64,000 nucleotides of DNA, from positions 4,622 through 68,621 of the forward strand of contig JACIWB010000001.1 of the NCBI GenBank assembly GCA_014361245.1, written 5' to 3'. The notes below the pieces were generated by a model. The model searched no databases. It saw only the letters and a program-made list of their open reading frames with translations, and was not told the DNA's origin. This stretch comes from Thermoplasmatales archaeon. Lineage in GTDB: Archaea > Thermoplasmatota > E2 > UBA202 > JdFR-43. The position numbers and the translations under genes were made by a program. Below are positions 7,264 to 41,701 of the stretch, in pieces; the stretch's first letter is position 1; every line of letters begins with the position of its first letter.

Positions 7264-7686
7264 ATGAAAATACTAATAGCAACAAATGCTGGCGGATTGG
7301 AGGATAATGTATCGCCGGTGTTCGGGAGAAGCCCAACCTATACAATAGTTGAAGTAGAGGGTAAAGAAATAAAAAATGTCAGAGTTATTCCAAATCAGTT
7401 TGCATCCGCCATCCACGGCGCAGGCGTGCAAGCGGGACAGCTTGCTGTAAGTGAAGGGGCTAAAGTTGCTATTGCGGGAAATTTTGGTCCAAATGTAGCA
7501 AATATTCTTAGAAGCGCTGGGATTGAGATGGTAATCTTTAATGGAAAAGTAAGAGAAGCGATTGAAAATCATATCAAAAGGGGCGATGAGGGCACAGATA
7601 TTGCAATGCTTGAAGAAGAGATAAGCAGAATAGAAGAAATGCTTCAAGAAATAAAAAATAGGTTGAACGAGTTGGAGAAAAAATGA
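7264..7686 (+). CDS. NifX/NafY-like dinitrogenase FeMo-cofactor-binding domain protein with C-terminal coiled-coil tail
   Basis: MKILIATNAGGLEDNVSPVFGRSPTYTIVEV...AIAGNFGPNVANILRSAGIEMV matches the NifB/NifX C-terminal domain fold family. Tail EEEISRIEEMLQEIKNRLNELEKK. Confidence 0.7.
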   Translation: MKILIATNAGGLEDNVSPVFGRSPTYTIVEVEGKEIKNVRVIPNQFASAIHGAGVQAGQLAVSEGAKVAIAGNFGPNVANILRSAGIEMVIFNGKVREAIENHIKRGDEGTDIAMLEEEISRIEEMLQEIKNRLNELEKK

Positions 7687-8051
7687 AAATAGCTTTTCCA
7701 ACATTAGGAAATAGAGGGTTGGAGGAGCAAATAGGTGAGCATTTTGGAAGAGTTCCTACATATACAATTTTTGATTTGGATAATAATGAAATAAAAATTG
7801 TTCCAAATTCCAGCACCCATATGGGTGGTTTGCTTTCCCCTCCTGAAATTCTTGCAAGGGAAGGGGTTAAAATAATAATATGCAAGGGCTTAGGAAGAAA
7901 AGCAATTGAGAGGTTTAGAAGCAACGGAATAGAAGTTTATAGTGCTGGTGATGCTTTAAATGTTAAGGAAGCAATTGATGCTTTTAAAAAAGGAAATTTA
8001 AGGAAGATTTCATTTGAAGAAGCATGCCATGGGCGCTCTAACCATCATTAA
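7683..8051 (+). CDS. NifX/NafY-like FeMo-cofactor-binding domain protein (second paralog)
   Basis: MKIAFPTLGNRGLEEQIGEHFGRVPTYTIFDL...IIICKGLGRKAIERFRSNGIEVY. 4-nt ATGA overlap with the upstream gene. Confidence 0.7.
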   Translation: MKIAFPTLGNRGLEEQIGEHFGRVPTYTIFDLDNNEIKIVPNSSTHMGGLLSPPEILAREGVKIIICKGLGRKAIERFRSNGIEVYSAGDALNVKEAIDAFKKGNLRKISFEEACHGRSNHH

Positions 8052-8053
8052 AA

Positions 8054-8869
8054 ATGATTGTTGCAATAGCATCTGGAAAGGGAGGGACTGGTAAAACAAC
8101 CGTCGGAGTAAATTTTGCTGTGGCAAACAATGGAATAATTTATGATTGTGATGTAGAAGAACCAAATGCAAATATTTTTATTAAAGCGGATTTAAGAAGA
8201 ATTGAAGATGTTTTCTTGATGAATCCATATTTTGAATTAAATAAATGCAAATTCTGTAAAAAATGCGCGGATCTTTGTGAATATAATGCAATTGCTGTAT
8301 TGCCATCTGATATTTTATTTTTTAAAGAATTGTGCTCTGGATGTGGCAGATGTAAAATTGTTTGTCCGCATGAAGCTATTAGTGAAGATAAAAGAAAAAT
8401 AGGTGAAATTTATCATGGTAAAAACGGAATAGAGATATATCAAGGATTGCTCAATATAGGAGAGACAAGGGCAAGCCCTTTAATAAGAAAGGTTAAAGAA
8501 CATTTAAGGAAAGAAAATTTATCAGTGTTGGATGCTTCTCCCGGTAATGCATGCCCTACTATAGAAACAATTCAGGGGGCTGACTTTGTTATTCTTGTTA
8601 CTGAGCCAACTCCTTTTGGATTGCATGATTTGAAAATAGCTATTGAAAGGGTAAAAAAATTCAATATCCCTTTTGGTATAGTAATAAATAAATATGGTTT
8701 GGGAGATAAAAGTCTGGAAAAGTTTTGCAACGATGAAGGAATAGAAATTCTAATGAAAATTCCATATAGCATGGAAATAGCAAGAAAATATTCCAGAGGG
8801 ATGATATTAGTTGAAGAAAAAAGCTGGGAAAGGAAATTCAATGAGTTGTATGAAATAATAAAGAGGTGA
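8054..8869 (+). CDS. MinD/ParA-superfamily P-loop ATPase with inserted 2x[4Fe-4S] ferredoxin domain
   Basis: Walker [14 protein letters not shown]; CKFCKKCADLCEYNAI and CSGCGRCKIVCPHEAI (two CxxCxxCxxxCP motifs). Confidence 0.8.
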   Translation: MIVAIASGKGGTGKTTVGVNFAVANNGIIYDCDVEEPNANIFIKADLRRIEDVFLMNPYFELNKCKFCKKCADLCEYNAIAVLPSDILFFKELCSGCGRCKIVCPHEAISEDKRKIGEIYHGKNGIEIYQGLLNIGETRASPLIRKVKEHLRKENLSVLDASPGNACPTIETIQGADFVILVTEPTPFGLHDLKIAIERVKKFNIPFGIVINKYGLGDKSLEKFCNDEGIEILMKIPYSMEIARKYSRGMILVEEKSWERKFNELYEIIKR

Positions 8870-8872
8870 AGC

Positions 8873-9658
8873 ATGGATTTAGATAATAAAATAGAAGAGA
8901 ATATGAAAAATGTGAAACATAAAATATCTATAATTAGTGGTAAGGGAGGGGTTGGAAAAACAACAGTCGCGGTAAATCTTGCTTATGCCCTTGCAATTAA
9001 AGGATACGAAACTGGTTTGTTGGATGCTGATATACATGGTCCAAATGTTGCAAAAATGCTTGGAATAGAAAATGAAAAAGTTTATGGAAGTGAGGATGGG
9101 ATGAAGCCAGTAAAAGTTATCCCTCACCTAAAAGCAATTTCTCTTGCCCTCCTTTTAGAAAAAGATGTGCCTGTTATATGGCGCGGTCCTCTCAAAATGG
9201 TAGCAATAAAACAACTTGTTGGTGAGGTAAAATGGGGTAATCTGGAGTTCCTTATAGTTGACCTCCCTCCAGGAACAGGTGATGAGTCCTTAAGTATAGC
9301 GCAGATTTTAAAGAATTGTAATGCTGTAATAGTTACAACCCCTCAGGATGTAGCACTGCTTGACAGCAGGAGGGCGGCGAACTTTGCCCGCCAGGTTGGG
9401 ATGAATATCATTGGTATTATAGAAAATATGAGCGGTTTTAAATGCCCATACTGCAGAGGGGAAATAAACTTATTTAAAATTGGAGGGGGAGAAGAGGCGG
9501 CTAAGGAATTAAATATAGATTTTTTGGGGAGGTTAAGCATAGATGAAAAAATTGTGATGGAAAGCGATGCTGGAATACCTTTTGTAAGTAAGGAAGGAGA
9601 GAGCAGAGAAATGTTCATGAAGATAGTGGATAAAATATTAGAAAAAATAGGAAAATGA
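8873..9658 (+). CDS. Mrp/NBP35/ApbC-family Fe-S cluster carrier ATPase
   Basis: ISGKGGVGKTTVAVNLA Walker A; conserved CPYC (KCPYCRGE) cluster-ligand motif; 261 aa. Confidence 0.85.
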   Translation: MDLDNKIEENMKNVKHKISIISGKGGVGKTTVAVNLAYALAIKGYETGLLDADIHGPNVAKMLGIENEKVYGSEDGMKPVKVIPHLKAISLALLLEKDVPVIWRGPLKMVAIKQLVGEVKWGNLEFLIVDLPPGTGDESLSIAQILKNCNAVIVTTPQDVALLDSRRAANFARQVGMNIIGIIENMSGFKCPYCRGEINLFKIGGGEEAAKELNIDFLGRLSIDEKIVMESDAGIPFVSKEGESREMFMKIVDKILEKIGK

Positions 9659-10485
9659 AGGAAATTGCAATAGCATCTGGAAAGGGAGGGACTGGTAAAA
9701 CAAGTATTGTATCATCTTTTGCAAAATTTGCTGAAGCTGTAATTGCTGACTGCGATGTTGATGCACCAAACCTTCATCTGATCTTTAATCCAGAAATAGA
9801 AGAAGCAATTCCTTTTGAGGGAATGAAGGTTGCTGAGATAAATGAGAGATGTATAAAATGCGGGAAATGCGAAAGAAACTGCAGGTTTAATGCAATAGAA
9901 AATTTTAAAGTTATAGAGGAAAAATGCGAGGGATGCGGAGTGTGTGTATCTGTATGTCCAGCAAATGCGGTTGAATTGAAAAGAAGAATTATTGGAGAAA
10001 TCTATGTTGCAAAAAGTAGGTTTGGACATCTTATATATGGTTTGCTCTCATCTGGAGAGGGAGGAGGAAAGCTCGTCAGCCAGATTAGACAGAAGGCAAG
10101 AGGATTTTCTCAAAAAAGAAACTTAATTTTGATTGATTCTCCAGCTGGTATAGGATGCCATGTAATAGCATCTATTACCAACGCAGATATGGTCATTATT
10201 GTAGCAGAGCCAAATCTATCATCAATTCATGATATGCACAGAATAATAGAGCTAGCAGAGCATTTTAAATCAAAAGTTTTGGTGATTATAAATAAATGGG
10301 ATATAAATGAAGAGATGACAGAAAGAATTGAAAAATATTGCAAAGAAAAAAATATTAAAATAGTTGGTAAAATTCCTTTTGATAAAAAATTTGTGGAGGC
10401 AGTTATTGCTGGTAAAAGCATAGTTGAATATGACGAAAAAATTGCAAATCTTATGAAAGAGATATGGAAAAAAATTGAAGAAGAA

Positions 10486-10503
<18 letters not shown>
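9655..10503 (+). CDS. MinD/ParA-superfamily ATPase with inserted ferredoxin domain (second paralog)
   Basis: [13 protein letters not shown]; [16 protein letters not shown] and [16 protein letters not shown]. The first ~37 nt of the conserved N-terminal region are identical to the paralog at 8066. Confidence 0.8.
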
Positions 10504-13168
<2,665 letters not shown>

Positions 13169-15692: not shown

Positions 15693-16904
15693 ATGAAAAG
15701 GAAATTTTTAGCAATTGGCATAGCAATTTTTATATCTGCAATATTAGCAACTGGAAGTATATTATTTCTTTATCCTTATGAGCCGAAGCAGCCCCCAAGA
15801 GCAGATGATAGCAGTTCAACACCCGAAGGTTTGAAAGAGGTGGCAAATGCAAACAACCAATTTGCATTGAAACTCTATTATGAACTTGCTAAGAATGAAG
15901 GAAACATTTTTTATTCCCCCTATAGCATTCTATCCGCTCTTTTGATAACATATGAAGGAGCAAAAAATGATACAGCTGAAGAAATGAGAGATGTGCTTGC
16001 TCTTCCAGATGAAGAAATAATCAGACCAAATTTTGCTTTACTTTATAATAAAATTAATGAAAATGATTATACTAGAACTGGAAATGCTTTATGGGTGCAA
16101 AAAGATTTTTTATTGTTTGAAGAATATAAAAGGAATGTTGAAAGATATTATGGTGGAAAAGCATCAAATTTAGATTTTTCTGATGAAAAATCAATGGAAA
16201 TAATAAATCGTTTTATAGAAGAACAAACAAATGGCAAAATAAAAGATTTTATTAAAGAAATTGACCCAACTACAAGATTAATTATTACAAATGCAATCTA
16301 TTTTAAGGGAATATGGAAATATGAATTTAATAAATCATTCACATATGAAGAAGATTTCAAAATAAATCAAACAAATATTGTAAAAGTCCAGATGATGTGC
16401 TTGAAGCCAGATAAATTCTTTAAATATGCTGAAACAGATGATTTGCAAATTCTGGAATTGCCTTATAAAGGAGAGAAATTTTCCATGCTAATATTTTTGC
16501 CAAAAAAAGAAAGCCTGGATTTAAACAATCTCGAAGAGTGGAAAAGCATGATGAAAGAAACAATGATAGATGAAATTCACCTTCCAAAATTTGAAATTGA
16601 AACATCATACACATTAAATGAAAATCTAAAATCTTTAGGAATAATATCTGCTTTCCAGCCAGGAAAAGCGGATTTTTCAGGTATAACAAGCGAAAAAATT
16701 TGGATTGGAGCCGTAATTCATAAGGCATACATCAGTGTTGATGAGGAAGGAAGCGAGGCAGCCGCTGCAAGCGCTGTTATCATGCCCACTTCAGCGCCAT
16801 CAAAAATTATTTTTAAAGCCGACCATCCATTTATATTCATAATACAAGAAAGGGATACTGGAAGTATTTTATTTTTGGGCAAGATTGTTAATCCAACTAA
16901 ATAA
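15693..16904 (+). CDS. Serpin (serine protease inhibitor), secreted/membrane-anchored
   Basis: N-terminal signal/anchor; C-terminal hinge and reactive-centre loop EEGSEAAAASAVIM and serpin signature FIFIIQERDTGSILFLGKIVNP; 403 aa. Confidence 0.85.
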   Translation: MKRKFLAIGIAIFISAILATGSILFLYPYEPKQPPRADDSSSTPEGLKEVANANNQFALKLYYELAKNEGNIFYSPYSILSALLITYEGAKNDTAEEMRDVLALPDEEIIRPNFALLYNKINENDYTRTGNALWVQKDFLLFEEYKRNVERYYGGKASNLDFSDEKSMEIINRFIEEQTNGKIKDFIKEIDPTTRLIITNAIYFKGIWKYEFNKSFTYEEDFKINQTNIVKVQMMCLKPDKFFKYAETDDLQILELPYKGEKFSMLIFLPKKESLDLNNLEEWKSMMKETMIDEIHLPKFEIETSYTLNENLKSLGIISAFQPGKADFSGITSEKIWIGAVIHKAYISVDEEGSEAAAASAVIMPTSAPSKIIFKADHPFIFIIQERDTGSILFLGKIVNPTK

Positions 16905-16934: not shown

Positions 16935-17702
16935 ATGAAATTAGGGATAATAGGTTGCGGGGCAATAGGAACCGATGTTGCAAGAGCGGCAGATGTAATG
17001 GAGGAAATTGAGGAAATTTATCTTTATGACATAGTAGAAGAGAAGGCAAAAAAGCTTGCAAAAGAGCTTAAAAAAGCAAAATTTGAGAAAGTAGAAAAAT
17101 TTTTGGAAAAAGTTGATGTAATTTTTGAAGCGGCATCCCAGCAGGCGGTTTATGATTATGCAGAAAAAATAGTAAGTGAAGGAAAGGACCTTGTAATAAT
17201 GACAATAGGAGCTCTTTTTGATGATGAATTTAGGGAAAGATTGATTAAAAAAGCAAAAGAAGGTGGGGCTAAAATATATCTTCCATCTGGAGCGGTGGCT
17301 GGCTTGGATGCAATAAAGGCTGCAAGCATAGGAGAGCTTGATGAAGTTACCCTTGTAACAACAAAAGCACCTGAAGCATTTGGAAAACATTTTGATAAGA
17401 GGACGATACTCTATGAGGGAAATGCAAGGGAGGCAATAAAACACTTCCCGAAAAATATAAATGTTGCGGCATGCCTGTCTTTGGCGGGAATTGGCTTTGA
17501 TAATACAAAGGTTAAAATCGTGGCTGACCCAGTTATAAAATACAACAGCCACAAGATATTAGCTCATGGAAAATTTGGAAGGCTTAGAGCAGAAGTAGAA
17601 AACTTGCCAAATCCAAAAAATCCGAGCACAAGCTATCTTGCCTCACTTTCAGCAATTGCAGTGCTTAAAAAGCTTGTAAATCCCTTGCAGATAGGAATAT
17701 GA
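16935..17702 (+). CDS. nadX: L-aspartate dehydrogenase
   Basis: MKLGIIGCGAIGTDVA Rossmann N-terminus; 255 aa; NadX-family body. Lies 1.6 kb from nadA. Confidence 0.75.
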   Translation: MKLGIIGCGAIGTDVARAADVMEEIEEIYLYDIVEEKAKKLAKELKKAKFEKVEKFLEKVDVIFEAASQQAVYDYAEKIVSEGKDLVIMTIGALFDDEFRERLIKKAKEGGAKIYLPSGAVAGLDAIKAASIGELDEVTLVTTKAPEAFGKHFDKRTILYEGNAREAIKHFPKNINVAACLSLAGIGFDNTKVKIVADPVIKYNSHKILAHGKFGRLRAEVENLPNPKNPSTSYLASLSAIAVLKKLVNPLQIGI

Positions 17703-18274
17703 AAAAATTATTGCTTTGCACGGCAATTATTCTTCTCGTTTCAGGAGCTTACCTATGCTATAATAAAACAAAAAAATTGAATGAAATGGTTTGCCAGGGT
17801 TGCATTGCAATAGTTTCAAAATCACAAAAATTTGGGGAATTCTGGATTGAATATCCGCATAACTATGGAATGAATGGTATACCAACTCATCCTGAATGGG
17901 CTATAAACTTCTCAAAAAATAATATTTTGATGATTTTTTTCTATGGACCCGCATGCGAGCCGTGCAAGCAGCAATGGGAGGAAATGAAGAATGAGGGCAT
18001 GGTTGAAGGGAGTGAAGAAGATGGAAAATTTTCTCAAAATTTTAGCTACGCCATACTTGTTACAATAGACATATCAAAGGATGCAGAAAATACAATAGGA
18101 ATTTATAATTCAAAAAGCTCTGTTCCTACAACAGTGATTATGTTTGAAAAAAACGAAAAAATTTACTGGTATGCCTTCTCAGGCCCGCCAGACGGAAAAG
18201 GAGGAAGACCCTCAATAGACGAACTGAAAAACATATTGGAAAAAGCGAAGGGTGAGAAATGGCCTGCAATTTGA
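17699..18274 (+). CDS. Membrane-anchored extracytoplasmic thioredoxin-like protein (TlpA/ResA-like)
   Basis: N-terminal signal anchor; FFYGPACEPCKQQWEEM (Trx W/YCxxC active-site context); cis-Pro region VPTTVIMF; additional CQGC. Confidence 0.6.
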   Translation: MKKLLLCTAIILLVSGAYLCYNKTKKLNEMVCQGCIAIVSKSQKFGEFWIEYPHNYGMNGIPTHPEWAINFSKNNILMIFFYGPACEPCKQQWEEMKNEGMVEGSEEDGKFSQNFSYAILVTIDISKDAENTIGIYNSKSSVPTTVIMFEKNEKIYWYAFSGPPDGKGGRPSIDELKNILEKAKGEKWPAI

Positions 18275-19110
18275 ATTGCCCCGCCTGCCCGCTTGCCTAT
18301 GCCTGCATACCTCTTGCAATTGCATCATTTTTTGCACTAAAAAAAGCGGGATTGCAGAAAAAAAGGATTGTTTCACAGCTTTCCTTTCTTTTAATAAGCA
18401 ATTTTTCCTTCATCTTTGGGGCAACTGGCTTAATTTATTCCTATTTTTATTGCTGGGAAAGTCCTCTGGCAATTGCTGCGTGTCCAATCGGAGTGCTTGA
18501 ACATGCATTTGCTGACAGAACTTTTTATCTTTTGATTTATTTAGGTGGTACGATTTTTACAGTTAGCATGATTTTTGGAAGGGCTGCATGTGGGTGGGCA
18601 TGCCCTATTGGTTTTTTGCAGGATTTAATTAAGGGTAGGAAAATAAAAAAGAAAGACAACAAATTCAGATATGCTAAATATTTTATTCTTATTGCAATTC
18701 CTTTCGCATGCTTTTTTACTGGAAAATTGGCTTACACGGATATTTGCCCTATAGGAGGACTAACTGGAACACTGCCTTATTTACTGATTAATCCAACAGG
18801 TTACACATTCACTGTTTTTTTCTATCCAAAGATGATTTTTGTTGCAGGATTCTTTATTTTGATAATTCTTGTAGCAAGGGGGTGGTGCCGGTATCTATGC
18901 CCTGTTGGGGCGATGATGGCTTGCTTTAACAGGATAAGTTTTTTGCAGATAAAGTATAGTGAAGAAAAATGTATAAAATGCTTTAAATGCTCTAAAATAT
19001 GTCCGATGCAGATAGAAATGCCATATGAAAATAAAAGCAATGAATGTATAAGATGTGGAAAATGTATTGATGCTTGTCCAACAAATGCTATTGAATTTAA
19101 ATGGCAATAA
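18259..19110 (+). CDS. NapH/MauN-like polytopic membrane iron-sulfur protein (2x CxxxCP + 2x [4Fe-4S] ferredoxin motifs)
   Basis: CGWACPIG and CRYLCPVG (CxxxCP), plus CIKCFKCSKICPMQI and CIRCGKCIDACPTNAI; several TM helices; 16-nt overlap with the upstream Trx gene. Confidence 0.7.
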   Translation: MACNLNCPACPLAYACIPLAIASFFALKKAGLQKKRIVSQLSFLLISNFSFIFGATGLIYSYFYCWESPLAIAACPIGVLEHAFADRTFYLLIYLGGTIFTVSMIFGRAACGWACPIGFLQDLIKGRKIKKKDNKFRYAKYFILIAIPFACFFTGKLAYTDICPIGGLTGTLPYLLINPTGYTFTVFFYPKMIFVAGFFILIILVARGWCRYLCPVGAMMACFNRISFLQIKYSEEKCIKCFKCSKICPMQIEMPYENKSNECIRCGKCIDACPTNAIEFKWQ

Positions 19111-19532
19111 GAAAATTTGAATATAAGGACATAGATGCAGTTTTGAGGATTGCTAATGAATCCTTTCCAGAAAAATATTCATCTGAATTCTTACTTTATT
19201 TATGGACTTCCTATCCAGATGGGTTTTTAGTCGCTGAAAAAAACCATGAAATTGCTGGCTTTATAATCAGTGTAAAAATTTCTAAAACAGATTTAAGAGT
19301 TCTAATGCTCGCGGTAAGTAAAAAATATAGGAGGCAGAGCATAGGAAGCTCTCTTTTAAGAGAACTTATTATAAGATTTCCAGAAGTAAGAAGGATTTTT
19401 CTTGAAGTAAGAACAGATAATGGAGAAGCAATAAAATTTTATCAGAAAAATGGCTTTAAAATAAGAGAAAAAATAAACGATTTTTATACTGATGGCTCGC
19501 CTGCATATGTTATGGAGAAAACTATTTTTTGA
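19101..19532 (+). CDS. GNAT-family N-acetyltransferase (RimI-like)
   Basis: 143 aa; VSKKYRRQSIGSSLLRELI (acetyl-CoA-binding motif A: R/Q-x-x-G-x-G/A); ...FLEVRTDNGEAIKFYQKNGF. Confidence 0.7.
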   Translation: MAIRKFEYKDIDAVLRIANESFPEKYSSEFLLYLWTSYPDGFLVAEKNHEIAGFIISVKISKTDLRVLMLAVSKKYRRQSIGSSLLRELIIRFPEVRRIFLEVRTDNGEAIKFYQKNGFKIREKINDFYTDGSPAYVMEKTIF

Positions 19533-19568
19533 AATAAAATTATAGGATAAAGGGAAGCAATTCAGATT

Positions 19569-21497
19569 TTATTTCTTCTTTTTTCTTATTAAAAAAATAA
19601 GGAATGAAAATAGTAAAATAAGGAAGGAGAAGGATGGTGTTTCATTTCTTCTTTCTATTTCCTTTTCAGTTGAAAATGAAAGAGAAAAATCATCATTTAA
19701 ATTCAATCCTCTTAAATCTTTAGCATTTTTTGATATATTTACAAAATATTTTTTTCCTTTCTCAAAATCAATTTTCAAAATTAATTTATCTTCATTCCAT
19801 TCAAAAACAGTTTCAGCAGGGGGATAAATAAATAAATTTTCCTCTACAGAACTTTTATTCATTTTACTTGAGAATTTTATTTCAATTCTTTCATTTATTG
19901 ATATATTTTCCTCTCCATCAAAAATATTTGTAGATAATATCGATGGATTTGTTATTGAAAAAGAAAAGAAAAAATTATCTTTTAATGGATTTCCATTTTT
20001 ATCTTCCATATAATCTGTTACTGTGACATTATATTTCCCCGCAGAGTAATATTTTGGATAAATTAAAAGCAATGAATCATTTTCTTCCCATTCATAACTA
20101 AAACTGATGAATGGCTTTATTTTTATTGCATTATGAAGAATAGGATACATTGGCTCCGAGAATTTAATTTTTATAAATTCATATAACTCGCTATTAAATG
20201 GCTCGGCATAGCTCACTTCCGGAGGAATGTTATCTGGAGAGGATGTAAAAAATGAAAAATAAAATTCTTCCATTTTTTGCCCGCTGATGCGGGATGCATT
20301 ACTTATTTTTATAGTATAAAGAGTATTATATTCCATATAAGGCTCCAAAATCAATTCTTTTTCATTCTTCCATTCCAGGAAATAGCTTGCATTTGGAGAT
20401 ATTTCTATTTCAATGCTTTTATTCATCTCATGGGAGAATTTTATTATAATAGAAGCATGCACCGGAACATTCTCGGATTTATTTTCGGGATAATGATAAA
20501 CAACTTTTGGGGAAGAGGTATCTACTATAAACTTATATGATATTTCACTTATCTGCCCGATGCTATCTTTTGCTCTTAAAAAAAATTCATATTCTCCATC
20601 ACTTAAGTTATAATCTGCTTTTCTGTTTTTATCCCAGTTGCTCCATTCTTCATTGCTCATCCTGTATGAATAAAGAATTTCACCCTCATCTTCTCCACTC
20701 CATTCAAAGGTTACATTCCCATAGCCCTCAACATCTCTTGGTTTCCTTGTAAAATATATATATGGCGGGGCATCTTCCGCCGGCGGGCTCGCAATGCATG
20801 CATCCACAAAATTTGCCAAAAAGGCATGCGTATCAGATGGAGGGTCTGAATATCTCATTTCCGATTGATTTCTGAAAACGACTGCTATTGCCATTACATT
20901 TTCCTTGTTTGTTGCTTCATTAAAGACTGCATCTATTCTCATTTTTTCATTTTTTTCAATATTTATTTCTCTTTTTATTGCATATCCGAGCAGTGCAAAA
21001 TGAAATGGATTTCCTCTCGCATCCTTCCATCTCGAAGTTGGTTCAACAACATAAACTTTTAAGTAGCCACTATAATTTTTACTTTCTCTATTCTCTATTT
21101 CAACTGATATGTTAAGCCCTTCATTTCTCCATATAACCCTCATTGAAAGATTTATGTTTGCTCTGCTCCTTGCAAGAGAACTTTCAATCGCTTTTATATA
21201 ATCCGATTTACTTTTCTTTCCAAATAAAACTTCATATCCACCATCAAAAAAAGCCGTTGGATAACCATACACATTGTATTCATTAACTCTTTCATTTGCA
21301 TCGCTGCTTTTATCAGCAACAAGAGAAACAAAATAGAATGGATATTGATGCGAGCTATAAATTTCATAAATAATTTCGCTCACATCAGGGCAGGCGGTGC
21401 ATGTTGTAGTTGTTGCTTCCTCACAAAATACATTTGCATTTGCCTTCAAAACGAAAAATAATAGTATGAAAGATAGGATTGCAAGATATTTTTTCAT
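19569..21497 (-). CDS. Large secreted surface protein: thioredoxin-fold CxxC module + Ig-like domains + C-terminal TM/KKKK anchor (PGF-CTERM-like variant)
   Basis: Signal peptide; CTAC...YPFYFVSLVADKSS...YNVYGYPTAFFDGG, paralogous to the Trx-like module of 22580..23995; C-terminus ETPSFSFLILLFSFLIFLIRKKKK. Confidence 0.55.
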   Translation of the reverse strand: MKKYLAILSFILLFFVLKANANVFCEEATTTTCTACPDVSEIIYEIYSSHQYPFYFVSLVADKSSDANERVNEYNVYGYPTAFFDGGYEVLFGKKSKSDYIKAIESSLARSRANINLSMRVIWRNEGLNISVEIENRESKNYSGYLKVYVVEPTSRWKDARGNPFHFALLGYAIKREINIEKNEKMRIDAVFNEATNKENVMAIAVVFRNQSEMRYSDPPSDTHAFLANFVDACIASPPAEDAPPYIYFTRKPRDVEGYGNVTFEWSGEDEGEILYSYRMSNEEWSNWDKNRKADYNLSDGEYEFFLRAKDSIGQISEISYKFIVDTSSPKVVYHYPENKSENVPVHASIIIKFSHEMNKSIEIEISPNASYFLEWKNEKELILEPYMEYNTLYTIKISNASRISGQKMEEFYFSFFTSSPDNIPPEVSYAEPFNSELYEFIKIKFSEPMYPILHNAIKIKPFISFSYEWEENDSLLLIYPKYYSAGKYNVTVTDYMEDKNGNPLKDNFFFSFSITNPSILSTNIFDGEENISINERIEIKFSSKMNKSSVEENLFIYPPAETVFEWNEDKLILKIDFEKGKKYFVNISKNAKDLRGLNLNDDFSLSFSTEKEIERRNETPSFSFLILLFSFLIFLIRKKKK

Positions 21498-21507
21498 GTT
21501 AATGAAT

Positions 21508-21894
21508 TTATTTATGCATTTTAATTTTTGCCATTATTAAAAGAGCCACTGATATTAAAATAATTTCAAACCCTGGTGTTTTTTTGCTGTTCACCTTTAT
21601 TATATCTTCCTTAATAACATTATTATCAACGATTATTGCAATTTCGAAATTCCCTTCATTTGTTGCATTGAATTTCGCAACCCATTTGCCATTTTCATAT
21701 TTCATCTGCTCATAAAAGCAAGCATCTTCATTAGGACAATATTTAAGCTTTACCACACTTGCACTTGTTACATTTTCTATTTCAGCATATACTGTTACAA
21801 CATCCCCAACTTTTGGCTGAGAGGGCTCCCAAGTAACATTTACAGCTCCGGCAAAAGAAGAAAAAAGGATGAGGAAAAGAATCACTGCTTTCAT
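21508..21894 (-). CDS. Small secreted protein with PGF-CTERM archaeal sorting signal
   Basis: Signal peptide; C-terminus KKTPGFEIILISVALLIMAKIKMHK (PGF + TM + basic tail); N-glycosylation sequons. Confidence 0.6.
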   Translation of the reverse strand: MKAVILFLILFSSFAGAVNVTWEPSQPKVGDVVTVYAEIENVTSASVVKLKYCPNEDACFYEQMKYENGKWVAKFNATNEGNFEIAIIVDNNVIKEDIIKVNSKKTPGFEIILISVALLIMAKIKMHK

Positions 21895-22583
21895 ATCTTC
21901 ACCTTGTATATCATTATCTCGTCTCTATATTCATCCCACGCAGAAGTATATCCCTTCACAATTATCTGCGTAAATTTCTCATCTAAAACCTCACTGTTAT
22001 TGTAGTCCTCGTTCCACTTCCACTCAAACGGCGGCTCGCTGTCGCTGTGCATCACTTTCAGCCCGCACCCGCAAGCCATAGGCAGCAGGAAATCAACAAC
22101 TTTTATATCGGATGTTGCATAGACCTCAACATTTATATCTCCAATTACAATCTGCCCCAATATTGGAAATACTTTTATTCCAAAAACATAAATTCCATTT
22201 CTTGGCTTTGTTATCCTGCAGGATGAAAGAGTATGGGGCATACTAACCTGCAATGTTGCTGGCTCACTTTTTGCTCCATGCTCATCTGTTGCTGTAACAG
22301 TAACTACATAAGTTCCCTTTTCCTGCCATGTATGTTTTGCCTCTACCTGCTGGCCAGAATTTACATATGGAGTGCAGAATTCATTTCCATCTCCCCACTT
22401 AAAACAGTAAAATATTTTGTCTCCATCTGGGTCATTTGCAACAGCAGTAAAAGTATATTCCTTTCCCGCTTCACCGCTTGATGGTCCATTTATTGTTGGC
22501 TTCTCTGGTGGATTGTTTGCAATTGCCAGTGCCGAAAAAACAAGCATTCCTACTATAAATATTGTCAGTTTCTTCATATTCAT
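21891..22583 (-). CDS. Secreted PKD-domain protein (short paralog of 22580..23995)
   Basis: First 108 aa nearly identical to the next gene: FTAVANDPDGDKIFYCFKWGDGN...HTWQEKGTYVVTVTATDEHG (PKD signature). C-terminal Ig-like domain related to the C-terminus of the long paralog. The middle Trx module is absent. Confidence 0.6.
   Translation of the reverse strand: MNMKKLTIFIVGMLVFSALAIANNPPEKPTINGPSSGEAGKEYTFTAVANDPDGDKIFYCFKWGDGNEFCTPYVNSGQQVEAKHTWQEKGTYVVTVTATDEHGAKSEPATLQVSMPHTLSSCRITKPRNGIYVFGIKVFPILGQIVIGDINVEVYATSDIKVVDFLLPMACGCGLKVMHSDSEPPFEWKWNEDYNNSEVLDEKFTQIIVKGYTSAWDEYRDEIMIYKVKI
22236..22579. repeat. Copy A of a ~344-bp near-identical direct repeat (5' end of PKD genes)
   Basis: Aligned by eye to 23645..23988 with only 3 mismatches. 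Confidence 0.85.
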
Positions 22584-23995
22584 ATATTTATCACATATAG
22601 ATAGATCTGCTCTTCCGCATAGTTTCCATTCACATCATATGCTCCTATGATAAGAGTATGGCTTCCAAAGGTTCCGTCATATAGGCACTCATATGGTGGC
22701 TCATTGTCATCAAGCAATGTTTCCCCACAAACTGTGAAAACAACATTTTTAACTCCTGAATCATCTGTAACATTTGCCTTCAATGTTATTTTTCCAAAAA
22801 CTATTGCGGTTTCTATGGGCAATGATAATATTTCCCTGTCAAATAGATACAGGCATCCTTTCTTTGGCTTTTCAACAATTATGTTCGGTGGGGTTACATC
22901 ACCCATTTCAAGATTTTCTATTGTAACATTTATTTTTAAAATAGCACCACACTCGCATCCGGTTAGCCAGTCAACTTTAAGATTTAGGTTTAAGTCATGC
23001 ACATCTTGTCCCATGCAATAATTTATTGCATTTTCATATGTTGCTTCATTGCTTGTTCCTCCAACAAGCACCTTTCTTCCACCGTCAAAGAATGCAGTTG
23101 GATAACCGTATAAATTATAATCATTTTTTAATCTATTATAAGCTATACTATTCACATCCCCTATCATGGAAACATAGTAGAAAGGATATACATTCTTATC
23201 AAAAATGCTCTTCAGCGCCCCTCCCATTGCGGGACAATATGGACAATATGTAGCGGTTGCCACTTCTATAAATACTGTATGAGTTGTACCCTCTTTAGAA
23301 TTGCTTCCTTCCTCGCCAGGCCTTGCGGCGGCGCAGGCATCAACATAATATGCATTGAAAGGATTCCTGCTTGGTGGGTATGCGTAACCTTTATGGGGCG
23401 AGGGGTTGAAAAGAGCGGCTATCACCATTATGTTGTCTTCACTCACATCTGGATAATTAGATTGAGAGGGGACCCAATCGACTTCTATATTTGCTTTCTC
23501 CATATAGGGAACATTTACATTTTCGTCATAAGCAAATTCAAGAAAACCAAAGTTGTAAGGATTTTTATTGTAGTCATTCCATCTTGATATTGGCTCTAAA
23601 ATATATATTCTTAATCTTCCACTATATCCAATGCTCTGGCTTAAGGGCATACTAACCTGCAATGTTGCTGGCTCACTTTTTGCTCCATGCTCATCTGTTG
23701 CTGTAACAGTAACTACATAAGTTCCCTTTTCCTGCCATGTATGTTTTGCCTCTACCTGCTGGCCAGAATTTACATATTGAGTGCAGAATTCATTTCCATC
23801 TCCCCAGTCAAAACAGTAAAATATTTTGTCTCCATCTGGGTCATTTGCAACAGCAGTAAAAGTATATTCCTTTCCCGCTTCACCGCTTGATGGTCCATTT
23901 ATTGTTGGCTTCTCTGGTGGATTGTTTGCAATTGCCAGTGCCGAAAAAACAAGCATTCCTACTATAAATATTGTCAGTTTCTTCATGTTTATCAC
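22580..23995 (-). CDS. Secreted PKD-domain + thioredoxin-fold (CPYC) + Ig-like domain surface protein
   Basis: PKD N-terminus; TATYCPYCPAMGGAL...YPFYYVSMIGD...YNLYGYPTAFFDGG (Trx/Grx-like CPYC active site and cis-Pro loop); 471 aa. Confidence 0.6.
   Translation of the reverse strand: MINMKKLTIFIVGMLVFSALAIANNPPEKPTINGPSSGEAGKEYTFTAVANDPDGDKIFYCFDWGDGNEFCTQYVNSGQQVEAKHTWQEKGTYVVTVTATDEHGAKSEPATLQVSMPLSQSIGYSGRLRIYILEPISRWNDYNKNPYNFGFLEFAYDENVNVPYMEKANIEVDWVPSQSNYPDVSEDNIMVIAALFNPSPHKGYAYPPSRNPFNAYYVDACAAARPGEEGSNSKEGTTHTVFIEVATATYCPYCPAMGGALKSIFDKNVYPFYYVSMIGDVNSIAYNRLKNDYNLYGYPTAFFDGGRKVLVGGTSNEATYENAINYCMGQDVHDLNLNLKVDWLTGCECGAILKINVTIENLEMGDVTPPNIIVEKPKKGCLYLFDREILSLPIETAIVFGKITLKANVTDDSGVKNVVFTVCGETLLDDNEPPYECLYDGTFGSHTLIIGAYDVNGNYAEEQIYLYVINI
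23645..23988. repeat. Copy B of the ~344-bp near-identical direct repeat
   Basis: See copy A; mismatches at 3 positions (CFKWG/TPYV vs CFDWG/TQYV in the protein). Confidence 0.85.
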
Positions 23996-24066: not shown

Positions 24067-25290
24067 ATGGAAGGACAGGCAAAAAAAGCATCTTTTGGGA
24101 GGGGATGGGATGCCTTTGCAACCAGCCTATCCTTCCAAAATTATAGAAAAAAACAATATATATTAATTTCGTTTTTTTATATTCCATGGCAATTGGTAGC
24201 ATTTGTCATTAATGCAAACTTTTTTAATCGATTTTATATAGCACATATGGAAAATGAGGAAATAAAGCTTCCGGAATTTGATGAAAAAAAATTCAAGGAA
24301 AAGGAAAAGAAAAAAGCAAAGATATATTTTATATCTTTTATTTTTGGATTAATAATGGCAATTCTATGTTCTTTCTTCTGGGTAAATTTGCCATCAAACA
24401 TTAGATGGCTTCTCTGCTTCCTGCTCGCAATTTCTTCAATTGGCTTTCTTGCAAAATTTTTCCAAATATTTAAACTGGATATCAAAAATTTCAGCAAAAA
24501 AGATTGGATTGCTTCAATATTTTATTATTTTATAACATGGTTAGCATTTTTTATACTTTTTATAAATCCACCATTCCATGATGTTTCCCCTCCAAAGATA
24601 GAGGTTGTTGCACTCCCAGAAATTCAGCAGGAAAATGGAACAATAAATCTTTTTGCTCTTATAACAGATAATTCATATGTTAGCAATGTTGTAATAAATA
24701 TATCTGGAAATGAATATGAAATTAAAAAAGATAATAACTCTGTTTATTCCTATAATCTAACCTATCCCGTAAGCGATTATTTCATTGTTGCAAAGGATAA
24801 AAACAATAATGAAGCAAAATATGAAGGAAAAGTCACATATAAAAACAATTTAATAAAGATAGAAAGCGATGAAGTTTTAAATTCCTCATCAGAGATTGAA
24901 ATAAAGGTTTATAAAAACATAAGCAAAAAAGGTTTTAGAGTATTTTATAGAATTGGAGAATATGAGGTAAATGCAACAAAATCAGGAGAGACAGGGGATT
25001 ATTTAATCTATTCAACATCCCCACAATACATTGGATGGAAAAAAAATTCATTAAATGAAATCGAAATATTTGTTGAGGTAATTCACTATTTCCCTGGTAT
25101 AAAAGATGCATATTCAAATAAAATATATGGAGGAAAATATTATTTCCAAACCACCGATGATGCCAATATAGGAGTGCTTGAATCGCCCGTCCCGAAAGAT
25201 TTGCCCCAACCCGAGCCGCTCCGCACGCCTGGCTTCGAACTCGTTTTGCTGATACTTGCAATAGCTTTATTTTTGAGAAAGAAGAAATGA
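24067..25290 (+). CDS. Membrane/surface protein with PGF-CTERM sorting signal (true start may be internal, M at 24247)
   Basis: C-terminus LRTPGFELVLLILAIALFLRKKK; 3-4 N-terminal TM helices then a beta-rich extracellular region with many NxS/T sequons. The 5' 180 nt contain the shared mini-ORF motif (24108..24156). Confidence 0.5.
   Translation: MEGQAKKASFGRGWDAFATSLSFQNYRKKQYILISFFYIPWQLVAFVINANFFNRFYIAHMENEEIKLPEFDEKKFKEKEKKKAKIYFISFIFGLIMAILCSFFWVNLPSNIRWLLCFLLAISSIGFLAKFFQIFKLDIKNFSKKDWIASIFYYFITWLAFFILFINPPFHDVSPPKIEVVALPEIQQENGTINLFALITDNSYVSNVVINISGNEYEIKKDNNSVYSYNLTYPVSDYFIVAKDKNNNEAKYEGKVTYKNNLIKIESDEVLNSSSEIEIKVYKNISKKGFRVFYRIGEYEVNATKSGETGDYLIYSTSPQYIGWKKNSLNEIEIFVEVIHYFPGIKDAYSNKIYGGKYYFQTTDDANIGVLESPVPKDLPQPEPLRTPGFELVLLILAIALFLRKKK
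24108..24156 (+). other. Second copy of the GGAGGGGATGGG...TTGCAACCAGCCTAT motif with mini-ORF MGCLCNQPILPKL* (24115..24156)
   Basis: Seen directly; differs from the ftsZ-upstream copy by a 6-nt insertion (atgcct). Confidence 0.4.
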
Positions 25291-39487: not shown

Positions 39488-41701
39488 ATGAACTTAAAAC
39501 ATTCGGTATTTGCATTGGCAATAGTATTTTTTATAATCTCGCCTACTCTCTCATTTTATTTTGTTCCTTCAATGAAAAAAATACCTTCAAATCTAAATGA
39601 AATTATATTTTATGAGGGAGAGCTTAGAATGCTAAATCCAAAGACAGCAACCCTTGATTACAAAAAAGTAGAGATTTTGAGAAAAATAAGTAGCATGGGG
39701 TATGAAGGAAATGTTCTTTTAATAAGAGAAGATATAGAAGTATTTGATAAAGTTACCAATGAAAGGATAGATGAACTATGCATGGTAAAATTGTATGGAA
39801 TAAATCCTTACAATGCTGAAAATATAGAAGGCTTTGGAGATATAGATAGGGCGGGGCAATGGATATTTCCTGTTGGAGTGCAAAAGAAGGATTATCTTGT
39901 ATGGAATAGCGACCTCGACGACCCTTTTAAAAAGGGTTACATTTCTAAGGAGGAGGCGCAATCCTGGGGGCGGTATGCTGGGGAGGAAAAAAGAGGAAGG
40001 ATAAGAACATATAAGTTTTCTGGGGGGCAGGAAAATGTGTTTTTTGGATATCTGCCAATGTTGCCTGAAGTAAAAATTTTTTATAGTGGAGATTTAACCG
40101 CATGGGTTGAGCCGAATACGGGAACAATAGTTGATTTACAGAAACATATATGGGAGTATGCTCAATTTCCAAATCTCAGAAAACTTCCCTCAAATCTTAA
40201 TATAAGTGTTTTTTTGGATGGTAAGATTGTAATTCTTAATACATCAAATGCTCTTTATGAGGAAAAAAATATAAGTGTTTGCAATCACATTGAAAATCTG
40301 AGAAATTTTGAACACTATTATATAATAAAGAATGAAGTAATTGCAACAGATGAAAACGGTGAAAGAATAGAAGATCTATGCTCTTATTCAGAGGATGCAG
40401 TAAATCCATATACAATGGAATTAATTGAATTTTTATGTGGAAAAAAAGGATTGCTTACATTTCCAGTAGGTGTTGAAAAAAAAGATTATGAAATATGGAA
40501 TTCAGATATAAATGATGTATCAACTGTAAAATTTATGGGAGAGGAAGAAATTGGCGGGCTAAAAGTTTATAGATATGAAAGTGATGTAAAAAATTATTTT
40601 ATAGGAAATGAAAGTATAGAAGGACTGAGTGACAGGTATATAAAACTTTACTATGATGGAAAAACAACTTATTTTGTTGAGCCATCGACAGGTTTCATAG
40701 TTTATCTTGAAAAAAATGGAGATATAAATGCAAATTTTCCAAATTTATATACCATACCAGAAAATTTTGAAACAAGCGTGAAAATGGAAGGTGAGCTCTC
40801 AATTGCATCTATTTTAAGAGAAATAGAAATGGAAAGAAATTTAAGGGTGGGAAATGTTTGTTGGGAAGACGGGAAAAAGGTTATTGTTATAGAGGATATA
40901 ACCGAAACGAGGGATAAAAGAAATGGTGAAAAAATTGATATGGCGTGCAAGAAAGAATATCATGGGGTATATGCAGATACATGCGAGGAGGCAAAAAATT
41001 ATGGGGATATGGAGAGGGAGGGACTTTTTACATTTCCACCGGGTGTTGAAAAAAGAGATTATTTGATGTGGAATCCTGAAATAAATTTGCCATCAATAGT
41101 TTCATTTATAAGAGAAGAGGACCATGAAGGAATTCATACCTACCTTTTTGAGACAGAAGAAGATAGATTTTTGTATGATTCAACAATCGGCATGAATGTA
41201 AGATATATTACCAAAACAGATTACTGGGTTGAGCCGAAAACGGGTCTTATTATTGATATGAAAAAAAATTCAGTTAAAAAGATAAATCCTCTGGAGATAA
41301 TAACTGGATTAAGAGGGTTTTTTTGGATTGATGTATATAAGGTAAATTTATCGTTTAAAAAAGAAACAATTGAGGAAATGAAAGAAAAGTCAATTACAAT
41401 GGCTCGCCTGCTAAATTTTTCAGAATCAATTAGTAGTGTTGTTAGGATAAATCTTAAAACAAAAGATATTTTTGAAAATATGGAAAAAGCAAAAGAACAA
41501 AAAAATCAGATAGAAAAACTATCTGAAAATAAAGTAAAAGTTCTTGATTTTAGATACTGGATGAAAGAAAAATCGGTTAATGAGATGGCAGAAAAAGCAA
41601 AAAAAGCATCTTTTTTAATCATTTTCCTGCAGATAGTTATTCCATCTTTGCTTATTTTATTTGGAATCATTCTAATGATTTACTGGATAAAAAACAAATA
41701 A
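39488..41701 (+). CDS. Surface-anchored protein built from three ~190-aa internal repeats, N-terminal signal anchor and C-terminal TM helix
   Basis: Three repeats beginning (I/L)P(S/E)N(L/F), each with FP(V/P)GV(Q/E)K(K/R)DY..WN and (W/F)VEP.TG.I(V/I)(D/Y)(L/M)(Q/E/K)K; conserved Cys pairs per repeat; C-terminal FLIIFLQIVIPSLLILFGIILMIYWIKNK. Confidence 0.5.
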   Translation: MNLKHSVFALAIVFFIISPTLSFYFVPSMKKIPSNLNEIIFYEGELRMLNPKTATLDYKKVEILRKISSMGYEGNVLLIREDIEVFDKVTNERIDELCMVKLYGINPYNAENIEGFGDIDRAGQWIFPVGVQKKDYLVWNSDLDDPFKKGYISKEEAQSWGRYAGEEKRGRIRTYKFSGGQENVFFGYLPMLPEVKIFYSGDLTAWVEPNTGTIVDLQKHIWEYAQFPNLRKLPSNLNISVFLDGKIVILNTSNALYEEKNISVCNHIENLRNFEHYYIIKNEVIATDENGERIEDLCSYSEDAVNPYTMELIEFLCGKKGLLTFPVGVEKKDYEIWNSDINDVSTVKFMGEEEIGGLKVYRYESDVKNYFIGNESIEGLSDRYIKLYYDGKTTYFVEPSTGFIVYLEKNGDINANFPNLYTIPENFETSVKMEGELSIASILREIEMERNLRVGNVCWEDGKKVIVIEDITETRDKRNGEKIDMACKKEYHGVYADTCEEAKNYGDMEREGLFTFPPGVEKRDYLMWNPEINLPSIVSFIREEDHEGIHTYLFETEEDRFLYDSTIGMNVRYITKTDYWVEPKTGLIIDMKKNSVKKINPLEIITGLRGFFWIDVYKVNLSFKKETIEEMKEKSITMARLLNFSESISSVVRINLKTKDIFENMEKAKEQKNQIEKLSENKVKVLDFRYWMKEKSVNEMAEKAKKASFLIIFLQIVIPSLLILFGIILMIYWIKNK

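Follow-up and report, generated by a model that had tools for sequence, protein, structure and literature searches.

The control of thiol redox state outside the cytoplasm has been worked out well in bacteria (DsbA/B, DsbD/CcdA, TlpA/ResA), and hardly in archaea. MdrA of Methanosarcina is a membrane disulfide reductase with iron-sulfur clusters, and it carries a domain of the DsbD/CcdA type, not a NapH-like one. In bacteria, mau clusters hold both MauN, which is NapH-like, and MauD, which is thioredoxin-like, and they can be taken as a loose precedent for the pairing described here. NapH-like proteins are known as modular transmembrane electron conduits to extracytosolic partners with flavinylated domains (PMC8238504). 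HBP35 of Porphyromonas gingivalis is a surface-attached protein whose recombinant form outpaces E. coli thioredoxin in the reduction of insulin disulfides; this activity is lost in the C48S/C51S mutant, and hemin is bound via the C-terminal part (PMC2907840). This work concerns positions 17699-23995 of a stretch of 64,000 nucleotides from a Thermoplasmatales archaeon (the whole stretch is called the window hereafter), in which a thioredoxin-like membrane protein, a NapH-like iron-sulfur protein and HBP35-like surface proteins are encoded side by side. The analysis indicates, with a probability that we would put at about 0.6, that these genes make up a thiol-disulfide relay on the extracytoplasmic side in Thermoplasmatota, DsbD-like in its organization and built on a NapH-like core. 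The region comprises seven genes, three on the plus strand and four on the minus strand:

17699-18274, plus strand: TrxM (Trx191), 191 amino acids, predicted signal-anchored, outward-facing thioredoxin-like protein

18259-19110, plus strand: NapH283, 283 amino acids, NapH-like membrane polyferredoxin

19101-19532, plus strand: RimI-type GNAT acetyltransferase (TIGR01575 rimI, 93.8 bits against a cut-off of 86.4 bits)

19569-21497, minus strand: P4, surface protein with a signal peptide, an HBP35/Omp28-like module, three Big_5 domains and a PGF-like C-terminal anchor

21508-21894, minus strand: P5, small secreted protein with a cysteine pair and a PGF-CTERM anchor

21891-22583, minus strand: P6, secreted PKD-domain protein whose C-terminal domain contains C171-G-C173

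22580-23995, minus strand: P7, surface protein with a signal peptide, a PKD domain, a permuted HBP35-like module and a Big_7 domain

The signal-anchored thioredoxin with a CEPC motif that an earlier note on this DNA had described is present at 17699-18274, and its coupling to the next gene was confirmed: the TrxM stop codon (18272-18274) lies inside the NapH283 gene, which begins with an ATG at 18259 preceded by GGGTGA, giving an overlap of 16 nt. The genes P7, P6, P5 and P4 form one tight minus-strand operon, with overlaps of 4 nt between P7 and P6 and between P6 and P5 and a gap of 10 nt between P5 and P4. This operon is convergent with the TrxM-NapH283-GNAT genes, as the earlier note had stated for the two surface paralogs; their position immediately downstream did not hold, since the GNAT gene stands between NapH283 and P4, and both P5 and P6 lie between the paralogs.

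The conservation of this arrangement was studied in 89 loci anchored on the NapH-like gene (numbered with the prefix L), nine obtained from a scan of GTDB genomes with NapH283 and 80 from a metagenome scan with an alignment of NapH-like sequences. The loci collapsed at 80% NapH identity into 50 clusters, 19 of them with enough flanking sequence, and each component was called by profile hidden Markov models run on all open reading frames of all loci. TrxM adjoins the NapH-like gene in 47 of the 50 clusters and in every one of the 19 with enough flank. Among these 19, P5 is found in 16, and an HBP35-like gene with a CxxC motif lies within 10 kb in 14, mostly directly adjacent. Two further components appear in a second type of locus, from lineages less closely related to that of the window and called here the core type, which has the five-gene order cytoplasmic thioredoxin, TlpA-like lipoprotein, P5 domain protein, NapH-like protein and TrxM, with P5 directly upstream of the NapH-like gene. 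In the 13 core-type operons the TlpA-like lipoprotein is encoded in 12, and the signal-less, cytoplasmic thioredoxin, the first gene of the operon, in 11. The conserved core includes P5 and, elsewhere than in the window, the lipoprotein and the cytoplasmic thioredoxin, all of them absent from the earlier note. The source names of the core-type NapH-like proteins point to Thermoplasmatota or Thermoplasmata.

The nine GTDB loci share the order aspartate dehydrogenase, TrxM, NapH-like protein and GNAT without exception (9/9), eight of them are titled as metagenome-assembled genomes (MAGs) of Thermoplasmatota, Thermoplasmatales or Thermoplasmata, and four (L006, L007, L009 and L010) also have the convergent P4, P5 and P6 genes. 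L006 (JAWBPV010000026.1) is titled 'Candidatus Aenigmatarchaeota archaeon'; its proteins are 82-96% identical to those of the window and its gene order is that of the Thermoplasmatota contig L007, and it was probably mis-binned or mislabelled.

HBP35-like homologs were also checked independently of the NapH-like gene, and three of six (L003, L016 and L017) have a NapH-like neighbour. L003 and L016 present the order thioredoxin, P6-like PKD protein, HBP35-like protein, TlpA-like lipoprotein, a protein combining a P5 domain with Big_7, and NapH-like protein. The sequence of L003 stops inside the NapH-like gene, and in L016 this gene is followed by a protein of 209 amino acids and a second HBP35-like gene. 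In L017 the HBP35-like gene is convergent with the genes for a thioredoxin, a TlpA-like protein, a P5-like protein, a NapH-like protein and the 209-amino-acid protein. The latter is a TrxM homolog, with an N-terminal anchor, one CxxC motif directly after the anchor and another farther on, and the conserved proline. The gene set therefore occurs in at least three orders (those of the window, of L003/L016 and of L017) and in both arrangements of the strands, and can be followed to NapH identities of about 40%. The linkage whose conservation in related genomes the earlier note had proposed to examine is kept through several gene rearrangements and, because it recurs in many lineages, the arrangement goes far beyond chance.

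Compared with DsbD/CcdA, the cluster presents a core-type operon that also has a gene for a cytoplasmic thioredoxin, a membrane-anchored thioredoxin-like CxxC domain that faces outward according to the topology prediction, an extracytoplasmic domain with a cysteine pair (C-x4-5-C in P5, C103-x5-C109 in the Ig-like DsbD-alpha), and TlpA-like and other thioredoxin-fold putative clients outside. Nevertheless, the core is a Fer4_5 NapH-like protein with two 4Fe-4S motifs and not a DsbD/CcdA domain: NapH283 matches only Fer4-type families and not the DsbD membrane domain (PF02683), and there is no DsbD-family match among the annotated neighbours. Moreover, the parts of the cluster are separate polypeptides, and the cysteine pair of P5 is located in the middle of the domain, whereas that of DsbD-alpha is near the C-terminal end. 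P5 has no detectable homology to DsbD-alpha, and the likeness between the two is kept as an analogy.

The NapH/MauN-type protein reported in the earlier note has the expected motifs: CGWACP and CRYLCP (two CX3CP) and two CxxCxxCxxxCP (two 4Fe-4S sites), with five predicted transmembrane helices. It matches Pfam Fer4_5 (4.7e-14, 52.5 bits against a cut-off of 22 bits) and several 4Fe-4S families. The match to TIGR02163 NapH/MauN (1.5e-30, 106.5 bits) stays under the cut-off of 213 bits, and that to NF007013 (96 bits) under the one of 234 bits, so that by profile comparison the relation to NapH/MauN is at superfamily level only. The exact sequence is present in GenBank as MBC7128135.1, a '4Fe-4S binding protein'. 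As in NapH, MauN, NosR and PceC, transmembrane helices are each followed by CX3CP and a C-terminal ferredoxin domain holds two [4Fe-4S] sites; in contrast to these proteins, the scores are under the family cut-offs, there is no FMN-bind domain, and the partner is thioredoxin-like instead of flavinylated or heme-containing. Neither the 14-28 kb part of the window nor the Pfam-annotated surroundings of L016 and L017 were found to contain napA/napG, mau, nos or rdh genes.

In a set of 82 distinct NapH-like sequences, the eight iron-sulfur cysteines and the four CX3CP cysteines are kept in all. Three more cysteines, C65 and C75 in loop 1 (82/82) and C163 in loop 3 (81/82), are conserved to nearly the same degree, and C75 and C163 stand within C-P-[IVL]-G motifs, counterparts to the CX3CP-x-G motifs of the inner side. 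To our knowledge, the outer loops of E. coli NapH have no cysteines where these invariant ones stand. An additional CxxCP motif is found either in loop 1 (C65-x2-C68, 54/82) or, in the form present in the window, in an N-terminal tail that comes with an extra helix (C7-x2-C10, 27/82). The two sites are mutually exclusive and only one sequence, from L091, has neither, and this relocation of CxxCP between two outer sites suggests that the motif is needed at that membrane face. The L091 locus (9980-11634) is also devoid of P5, TlpA-like and thioredoxin neighbours, and its TrxM gene is on the opposite strand. Regarding topology, the mean number of lysines and arginines is 3.7 in loop 0 and 9.0 in loop 2, which would be inner, versus 1.2 in loop 1, 0.4 in loop 3 and 0.0 in the N-terminal tail, which would be outer. 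Hence, the iron-sulfur domain and the CX3CP motifs are predicted to be cytoplasmic, and C65, C75, C163 and C7xxC10P to lie on the outer face, a placement based only on hydropathy and charge statistics.

TrxM has an N-terminal hydrophobic anchor and the motif C86-E-P-C89 (17954-17965). A second CxxC motif, C32-Q-G-C35 (17792-17803), which the earlier note had overlooked, is located directly behind the anchor. The four cysteines C32, C35, C86 and C89 are kept in 68 of 68 distinct TrxM sequences, and the conserved Pro143 would occupy the cis-Pro position of thioredoxins. The Pfam thioredoxin match is weak (E 0.015), and the exact sequence appears in GenBank as a 'hypothetical protein' (MBC7128134.1). 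The protein is predicted to be anchored with its N-terminus inside and its thioredoxin domain in the extracytoplasmic space. This orientation, which the earlier note had proposed to check, agrees with two lines of evidence. The first is the net charge around the anchor, which averages +2.0 in the N-flank and -0.7 in the C-flank of the 68 homologs, being higher in the N-flank in 60 of them; taken alone, the flanks of the window protein are ambiguous. The second is a fusion protein of 530 amino acids encoded in L070 (5579-7171) and L092 (318-1907), in which a signal peptide and the P5 domain are followed by Ig-like repeats and these in turn by a two-helix hairpin and the TrxM domain. Because the two domains are joined via a two-helix hairpin and the P5 domain is secreted, they should lie together on the outer side of the membrane.

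P5 is predicted to be beta-rich, with weak matches to Ig-like families, and carries an invariant cysteine pair, C53-x5-C59. Its family is characterized by a signal peptide, a P-x-x-P start, the invariant C-x4-5-C, a conserved methionine, a G/N/D-rich linker and a PGF-CTERM segment (PF18204), which was detected in 10 of 31 members. This bears on the PGF-CTERM-type anchors that the earlier note had assigned to both large surface proteins: P4 does have a PGF-like tail (TPSF, a hydrophobic segment and KKKK), but P7 has no C-terminal anchor, and the typical PGF-CTERM is the one of P5.

The surface proteins P4 and P7 contain the CTAC and CPYC motifs and the YGYPTAFFDGG loop indicated in the earlier note. 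In P4, the module spans residues 20-245 (20763-21440), with C33-T-A-C36 at 21390-21401, and is followed by the three Ig-like Big_5 domains. In P7 it spans residues 124-365 approximately, with C251-P-Y-C254 at 23234-23245 and the same loop as in P4, together with the PKD and Big_7 domains. The description of both modules as central thus has to be amended, as that of P4 is N-terminal and that of P7 is circularly permuted. In P4 the thioredoxin domain precedes a beta-sandwich, whereas in P7 the later part of the sandwich comes first, followed by the thioredoxin domain and the first strands. The two orders are each common, with 106 of the family's 150 best representatives arranged like P4 and 39 like P7.

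The AlphaFold2 (AF2) model of the P4 module, built from 42 sequences, is of high confidence (pLDDT 95.9, pTM 0.92) and answers the fold check suggested in the earlier note. It displays a beta-alpha-beta-alpha-beta-beta-alpha thioredoxin/glutaredoxin fold and then a seven-strand sandwich, with the CxxC at the N-terminus of helix 1 and a proline at the thioredoxin cis-Pro position, preceding strand 3. Its structural relatives are HBP35 of P. gingivalis (5Y1A), Omp28 (2R2C) and DUF1223/Atu2684 (2AXO), with identities of 12-18%, followed by plain thioredoxins. According to the modelling, then, the surface CxxC modules are thioredoxin folds with a characterized bacterial structural relative, HBP35. 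As in HBP35 and Omp28, a thioredoxin fold with CxxC and the following beta-sandwich make up one unit. Here, in contrast, the proteins carry archaeal PGF-like anchors and PKD, Big_5 and Big_7 domains instead of the C-terminal domain for type IX secretion (T9SS) of HBP35, and the family includes a circularly permuted form. The relation is one of modelled structure and not of sequence: the regions around the CxxC of P4 and P7 give weak Omp28 and thioredoxin matches, and a HMMER search of the module profile against PDB sequences gave weak thioredoxin matches and no HBP35. Membership of Pfam Omp28 (PF11551) is not reached either, as the best score is 27.8 bits against a gathering threshold of 34.9, with five of eight members matching below threshold; one module homolog (P0168) has a precomputed PF11551 match.

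A word-indexed search with the 245 N-terminal residues of P4 gave few relatives. A profile of seven sequences, compared with 1.84 billion representatives clustered at 50% identity, revealed a family of 1122 clusters at E<=1e-3 and 408 at E<=1e-30. Their database names are 'hypothetical', 'glutaredoxin' or 'thiol-disulfide isomerase', and they belong to Thermoplasmata-type or unnamed archaea. The invariant features of the alignment are E-x6-C-x2-C-P, a Y-N...P loop and D-G-G, with CxxC in nearly all representatives. The earlier statement that thioredoxin modules are unusual in large surface proteins has to be softened, because of these 1122 clusters and the characterized structural relative HBP35 (PMC2907840).

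The protein between P7 and P5, P6, has a PKD match (2.2e-12), and in L003, L016 and L053 the gene immediately upstream of the HBP35-like one is a P6 ortholog. CxC motifs are present in P6 (MACGCG, residues 171-173, also in the L016 ortholog) and P7 (GCECG, residues 347-349), and some module homologs have CPC or CC at this place. These cysteines may be further redox-active or metal-binding residues. In addition, positions 22236-22535 and 23645-23944 form a direct repeat of 300 nt with 99% identity that encodes near-identical PKD domains (residues 17-116 approximately) in P6 and P7, which suggests a recent duplication or gene conversion. Elsewhere, L004 (3945-9506) carries a permuted HBP35-like gene beside genes for a Peptidase_C25 (gingipain-type) and a Peptidase_C1 with PKD, a neighbourhood that may point to a connection of surface thioredoxins with cysteine peptidases outside the cell.

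What the analysis shows is the gene content together with the folds, the conservation of the cysteines, the topology as predicted and the conserved linkage; the exchange of electrons between these components and its direction are inferred. The cytoplasmic donor could be a ferredoxin or the cytoplasmic thioredoxin encoded in most related operons. Electrons would pass from it to the iron-sulfur and CX3CP sites of the NapH-like protein and from these to its outer-face cysteines, which could then reduce TrxM, with one CxxC close to the membrane and the other in the putative thioredoxin fold outside. TrxM would in turn reduce P5 and, where it is encoded, the TlpA-like lipoprotein. P5 would be the third constant component, held at the surface by its PGF-CTERM anchor, and could pass electrons on to the HBP35-like surface thioredoxins P4 and P7. 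The latter are likely clients or terminal oxidoreductases, and as such might act on disulfides of surface or extracellular proteins. The proposal of the earlier note that the TrxM-NapH pair may supply reducing equivalents to surface thioredoxin-fold proteins gains support from these results, the flow direction and the donor-substrate relation being those proposed in the scheme above. More tentatively, and with some doubt on our part, the cluster could represent a new class of transmembrane disulfide oxidoreductase, in which a NapH-like protein, taking the place of a cysteine-only DsbD/CcdA domain, would use iron-sulfur-to-disulfide chemistry to lead reducing power from a cytoplasmic ferredoxin or thioredoxin to outer cysteines, and from there via the double-CxxC TrxM and the cysteine-pair protein to the HBP35-like thioredoxins. 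This would be a split, archaeal DsbD-like relay that had arisen by convergence. As a speculation, Thermoplasmatota that are anaerobic and possibly degrade proteins could use the relay to hold substrate proteins outside the cell, or cysteine peptidases at its surface, in the reduced state.

Several observations weigh against the reductive relay. In the NapH-like protein, no cofactor is evident that could span the membrane from the inner iron-sulfur and CX3CP sites to the outer cysteines, and the conserved outer cysteines could be structural, forming disulfides or a metal site, instead of part of a relay. The AF2 model of TrxM is of low confidence (pLDDT 64.8) and gives weak support to its thioredoxin fold. 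P5 was considered as a DsbD-alpha homolog and this was rejected, as HMMER found nothing among PDB sequences and Pfam; hhalign aligned only the 16-residue cysteine loop of the two, with a probability of 13%. With respect to gene content, the window has no TlpA-like gene and no extra or cytoplasmic thioredoxin gene, the clusters of L011 and L012, which are window-type with long flanks, have no P4, P5 or P6 nearby, and the remaining three of the six independently checked HBP35-like homologs have no NapH-like neighbour.

The same parts could also work in the oxidizing direction, as a disulfide-forming system of the DsbA/DsbB or VKOR type in which the surface CxxC modules oxidize secreted proteins and electrons flow via TrxM/P5, the NapH-like outer cysteines and the iron-sulfur sites to quinone or cytoplasmic acceptors. 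The topology and the linkage fit both directions, the neighbouring secreted proteins are cysteine-rich (11 cysteines in P7 and 5 in P6), canonical NapH is a putative quinone-binding subunit (PMC8238504), and a plasmid with hbp35 complements an E. coli dsbA mutant (PMC2907840). Nevertheless, we consider this option unlikely. The cytoplasmic thioredoxin (11/13) and the TlpA-like lipoprotein (12/13) of the core operons are typical of reductive branches, and the activity shown by HBP35 in vitro is that of a reductase. Furthermore, by our reading of the MAG and contig names, the loci come from hot springs, hydrothermal vents and sediments, settings that offer a less obvious oxidant sink. The CEPC motif of TrxM, which we take to be that of the reductive ResA, also argues against the oxidizing direction.

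A role in surface metal or heme handling was considered as well, with the NapH-like protein acting as a CcoG-type reductase in Cu(II) or Fe(III) reduction, or with hemin capture, and the CxxC modules serving as metal or heme ligands. NapH283 does match the CcoG family weakly (TIGR02745, 3.7e-10), the TlpA-like proteins of related operons also match SCO1-SenC, and HBP35 binds hemin via its C-terminal part (PMC2907840). There are, in addition, genes for an ArsR-type HTH_5 regulator and for anion transport just upstream of the cluster in L003 and L016, and L016 has a full ars-type set (ArsP, Acr3-like SBF and LMWPc arsenate reductase) and the metal-uptake genes ZnuA and NikR. However, none of the constant genes of the cluster is for a copper oxidase, a Sco protein (CxxxC) or the transport of heme or metals, the TlpA-like proteins have CxxC and not the CxxxC of Sco, and what is invariant in the module is the CxxC together with the conserved-proline loop of a redox-active thioredoxin fold, all of which makes this role improbable.

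Finally, it is highly improbable that the genes are chance neighbours, with the TrxM-NapH pair serving an unrelated membrane redox task and the surface proteins being ordinary S-layer-associated ones. This idea would account for the L011 and L012 pairs without surface genes, the HBP35-like homologs without a NapH-like neighbour (3/6) and the position of the window-type pair between housekeeping genes (aspartate dehydrogenase and RimI). It is already largely refuted by a linkage that survives at least three gene orders, both strand arrangements and a fall to about 40% NapH identity, by the HBP35-like gene that 14 of 19 clusters have no more than 10 kb away, in most cases as the direct neighbour, and by the fusion of P5 to TrxM in L070 and L092.

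Concerning the other genes of the window, the GNAT gene overlaps NapH283 by 10 nt. It was considered as a component of the redox system but not retained, since window-type loci are the only ones in which it is linked and core-type loci have none; it is probably outside the system. Two genes upstream of TrxM there is a serpin gene (15693-16904; PF00079, 1.8e-111) whose product has an N-terminal hydrophobic segment and is probably secreted. On the other side, directly beside P7 and on the opposite strand, 24067-25290 encodes a 407-amino-acid protein that has a weak EMC6-arch match, below the cut-off (2.4e-4), and several transmembrane helices, as well as an Ig-like region and a C-terminal tail of PGF-like type. 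Further away, 7683-10503 contains a gene for a small Nitro_FeMo-Co-like protein and, after it, three P-loop genes of the MinD/ParA type; the two of these that were scanned, the first and the third, have inserted 4Fe-4S motifs. A Nitro_FeMo-Co gene is also found upstream of the cluster in L003. The region 39488-41701 encodes a 737-amino-acid protein that matches Pfam PorA (PF11271, 6.8e-58) three times, a family name that one would not expect in an archaeon. A sigma-70 promoter and terminator scan of the window stayed at background level, the sigma-70 model being not applicable to archaea.

Literature searches on the pairing of NapH-like proteins with thioredoxins, on archaeal extracellular thioredoxin systems and on Thermoplasmatota polyferredoxins gave no description of such a cluster, and those on Omp28 with thioredoxin and on DUF1223 gave nothing useful. 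The folds are already known; the combination, the pattern of outer-face cysteines and the wide conservation in Thermoplasmatota are, as far as we could find, new. The cluster, with 50 clusters of Thermoplasmatota-type loci, offers a concrete and widely conserved archaeal candidate with defined parts and cysteines for the control of extracytoplasmic thiols. If electrons do pass through the NapH-like protein to its outer cysteines, the NapH-like conduit would extend from flavin and heme partners to thioredoxin partners, and there would be a second, independent solution for moving thiol-redox equivalents across the membrane. Moreover, the structural link to HBP35 gives a first indication of function for a large family of archaeal surface proteins that has no name.

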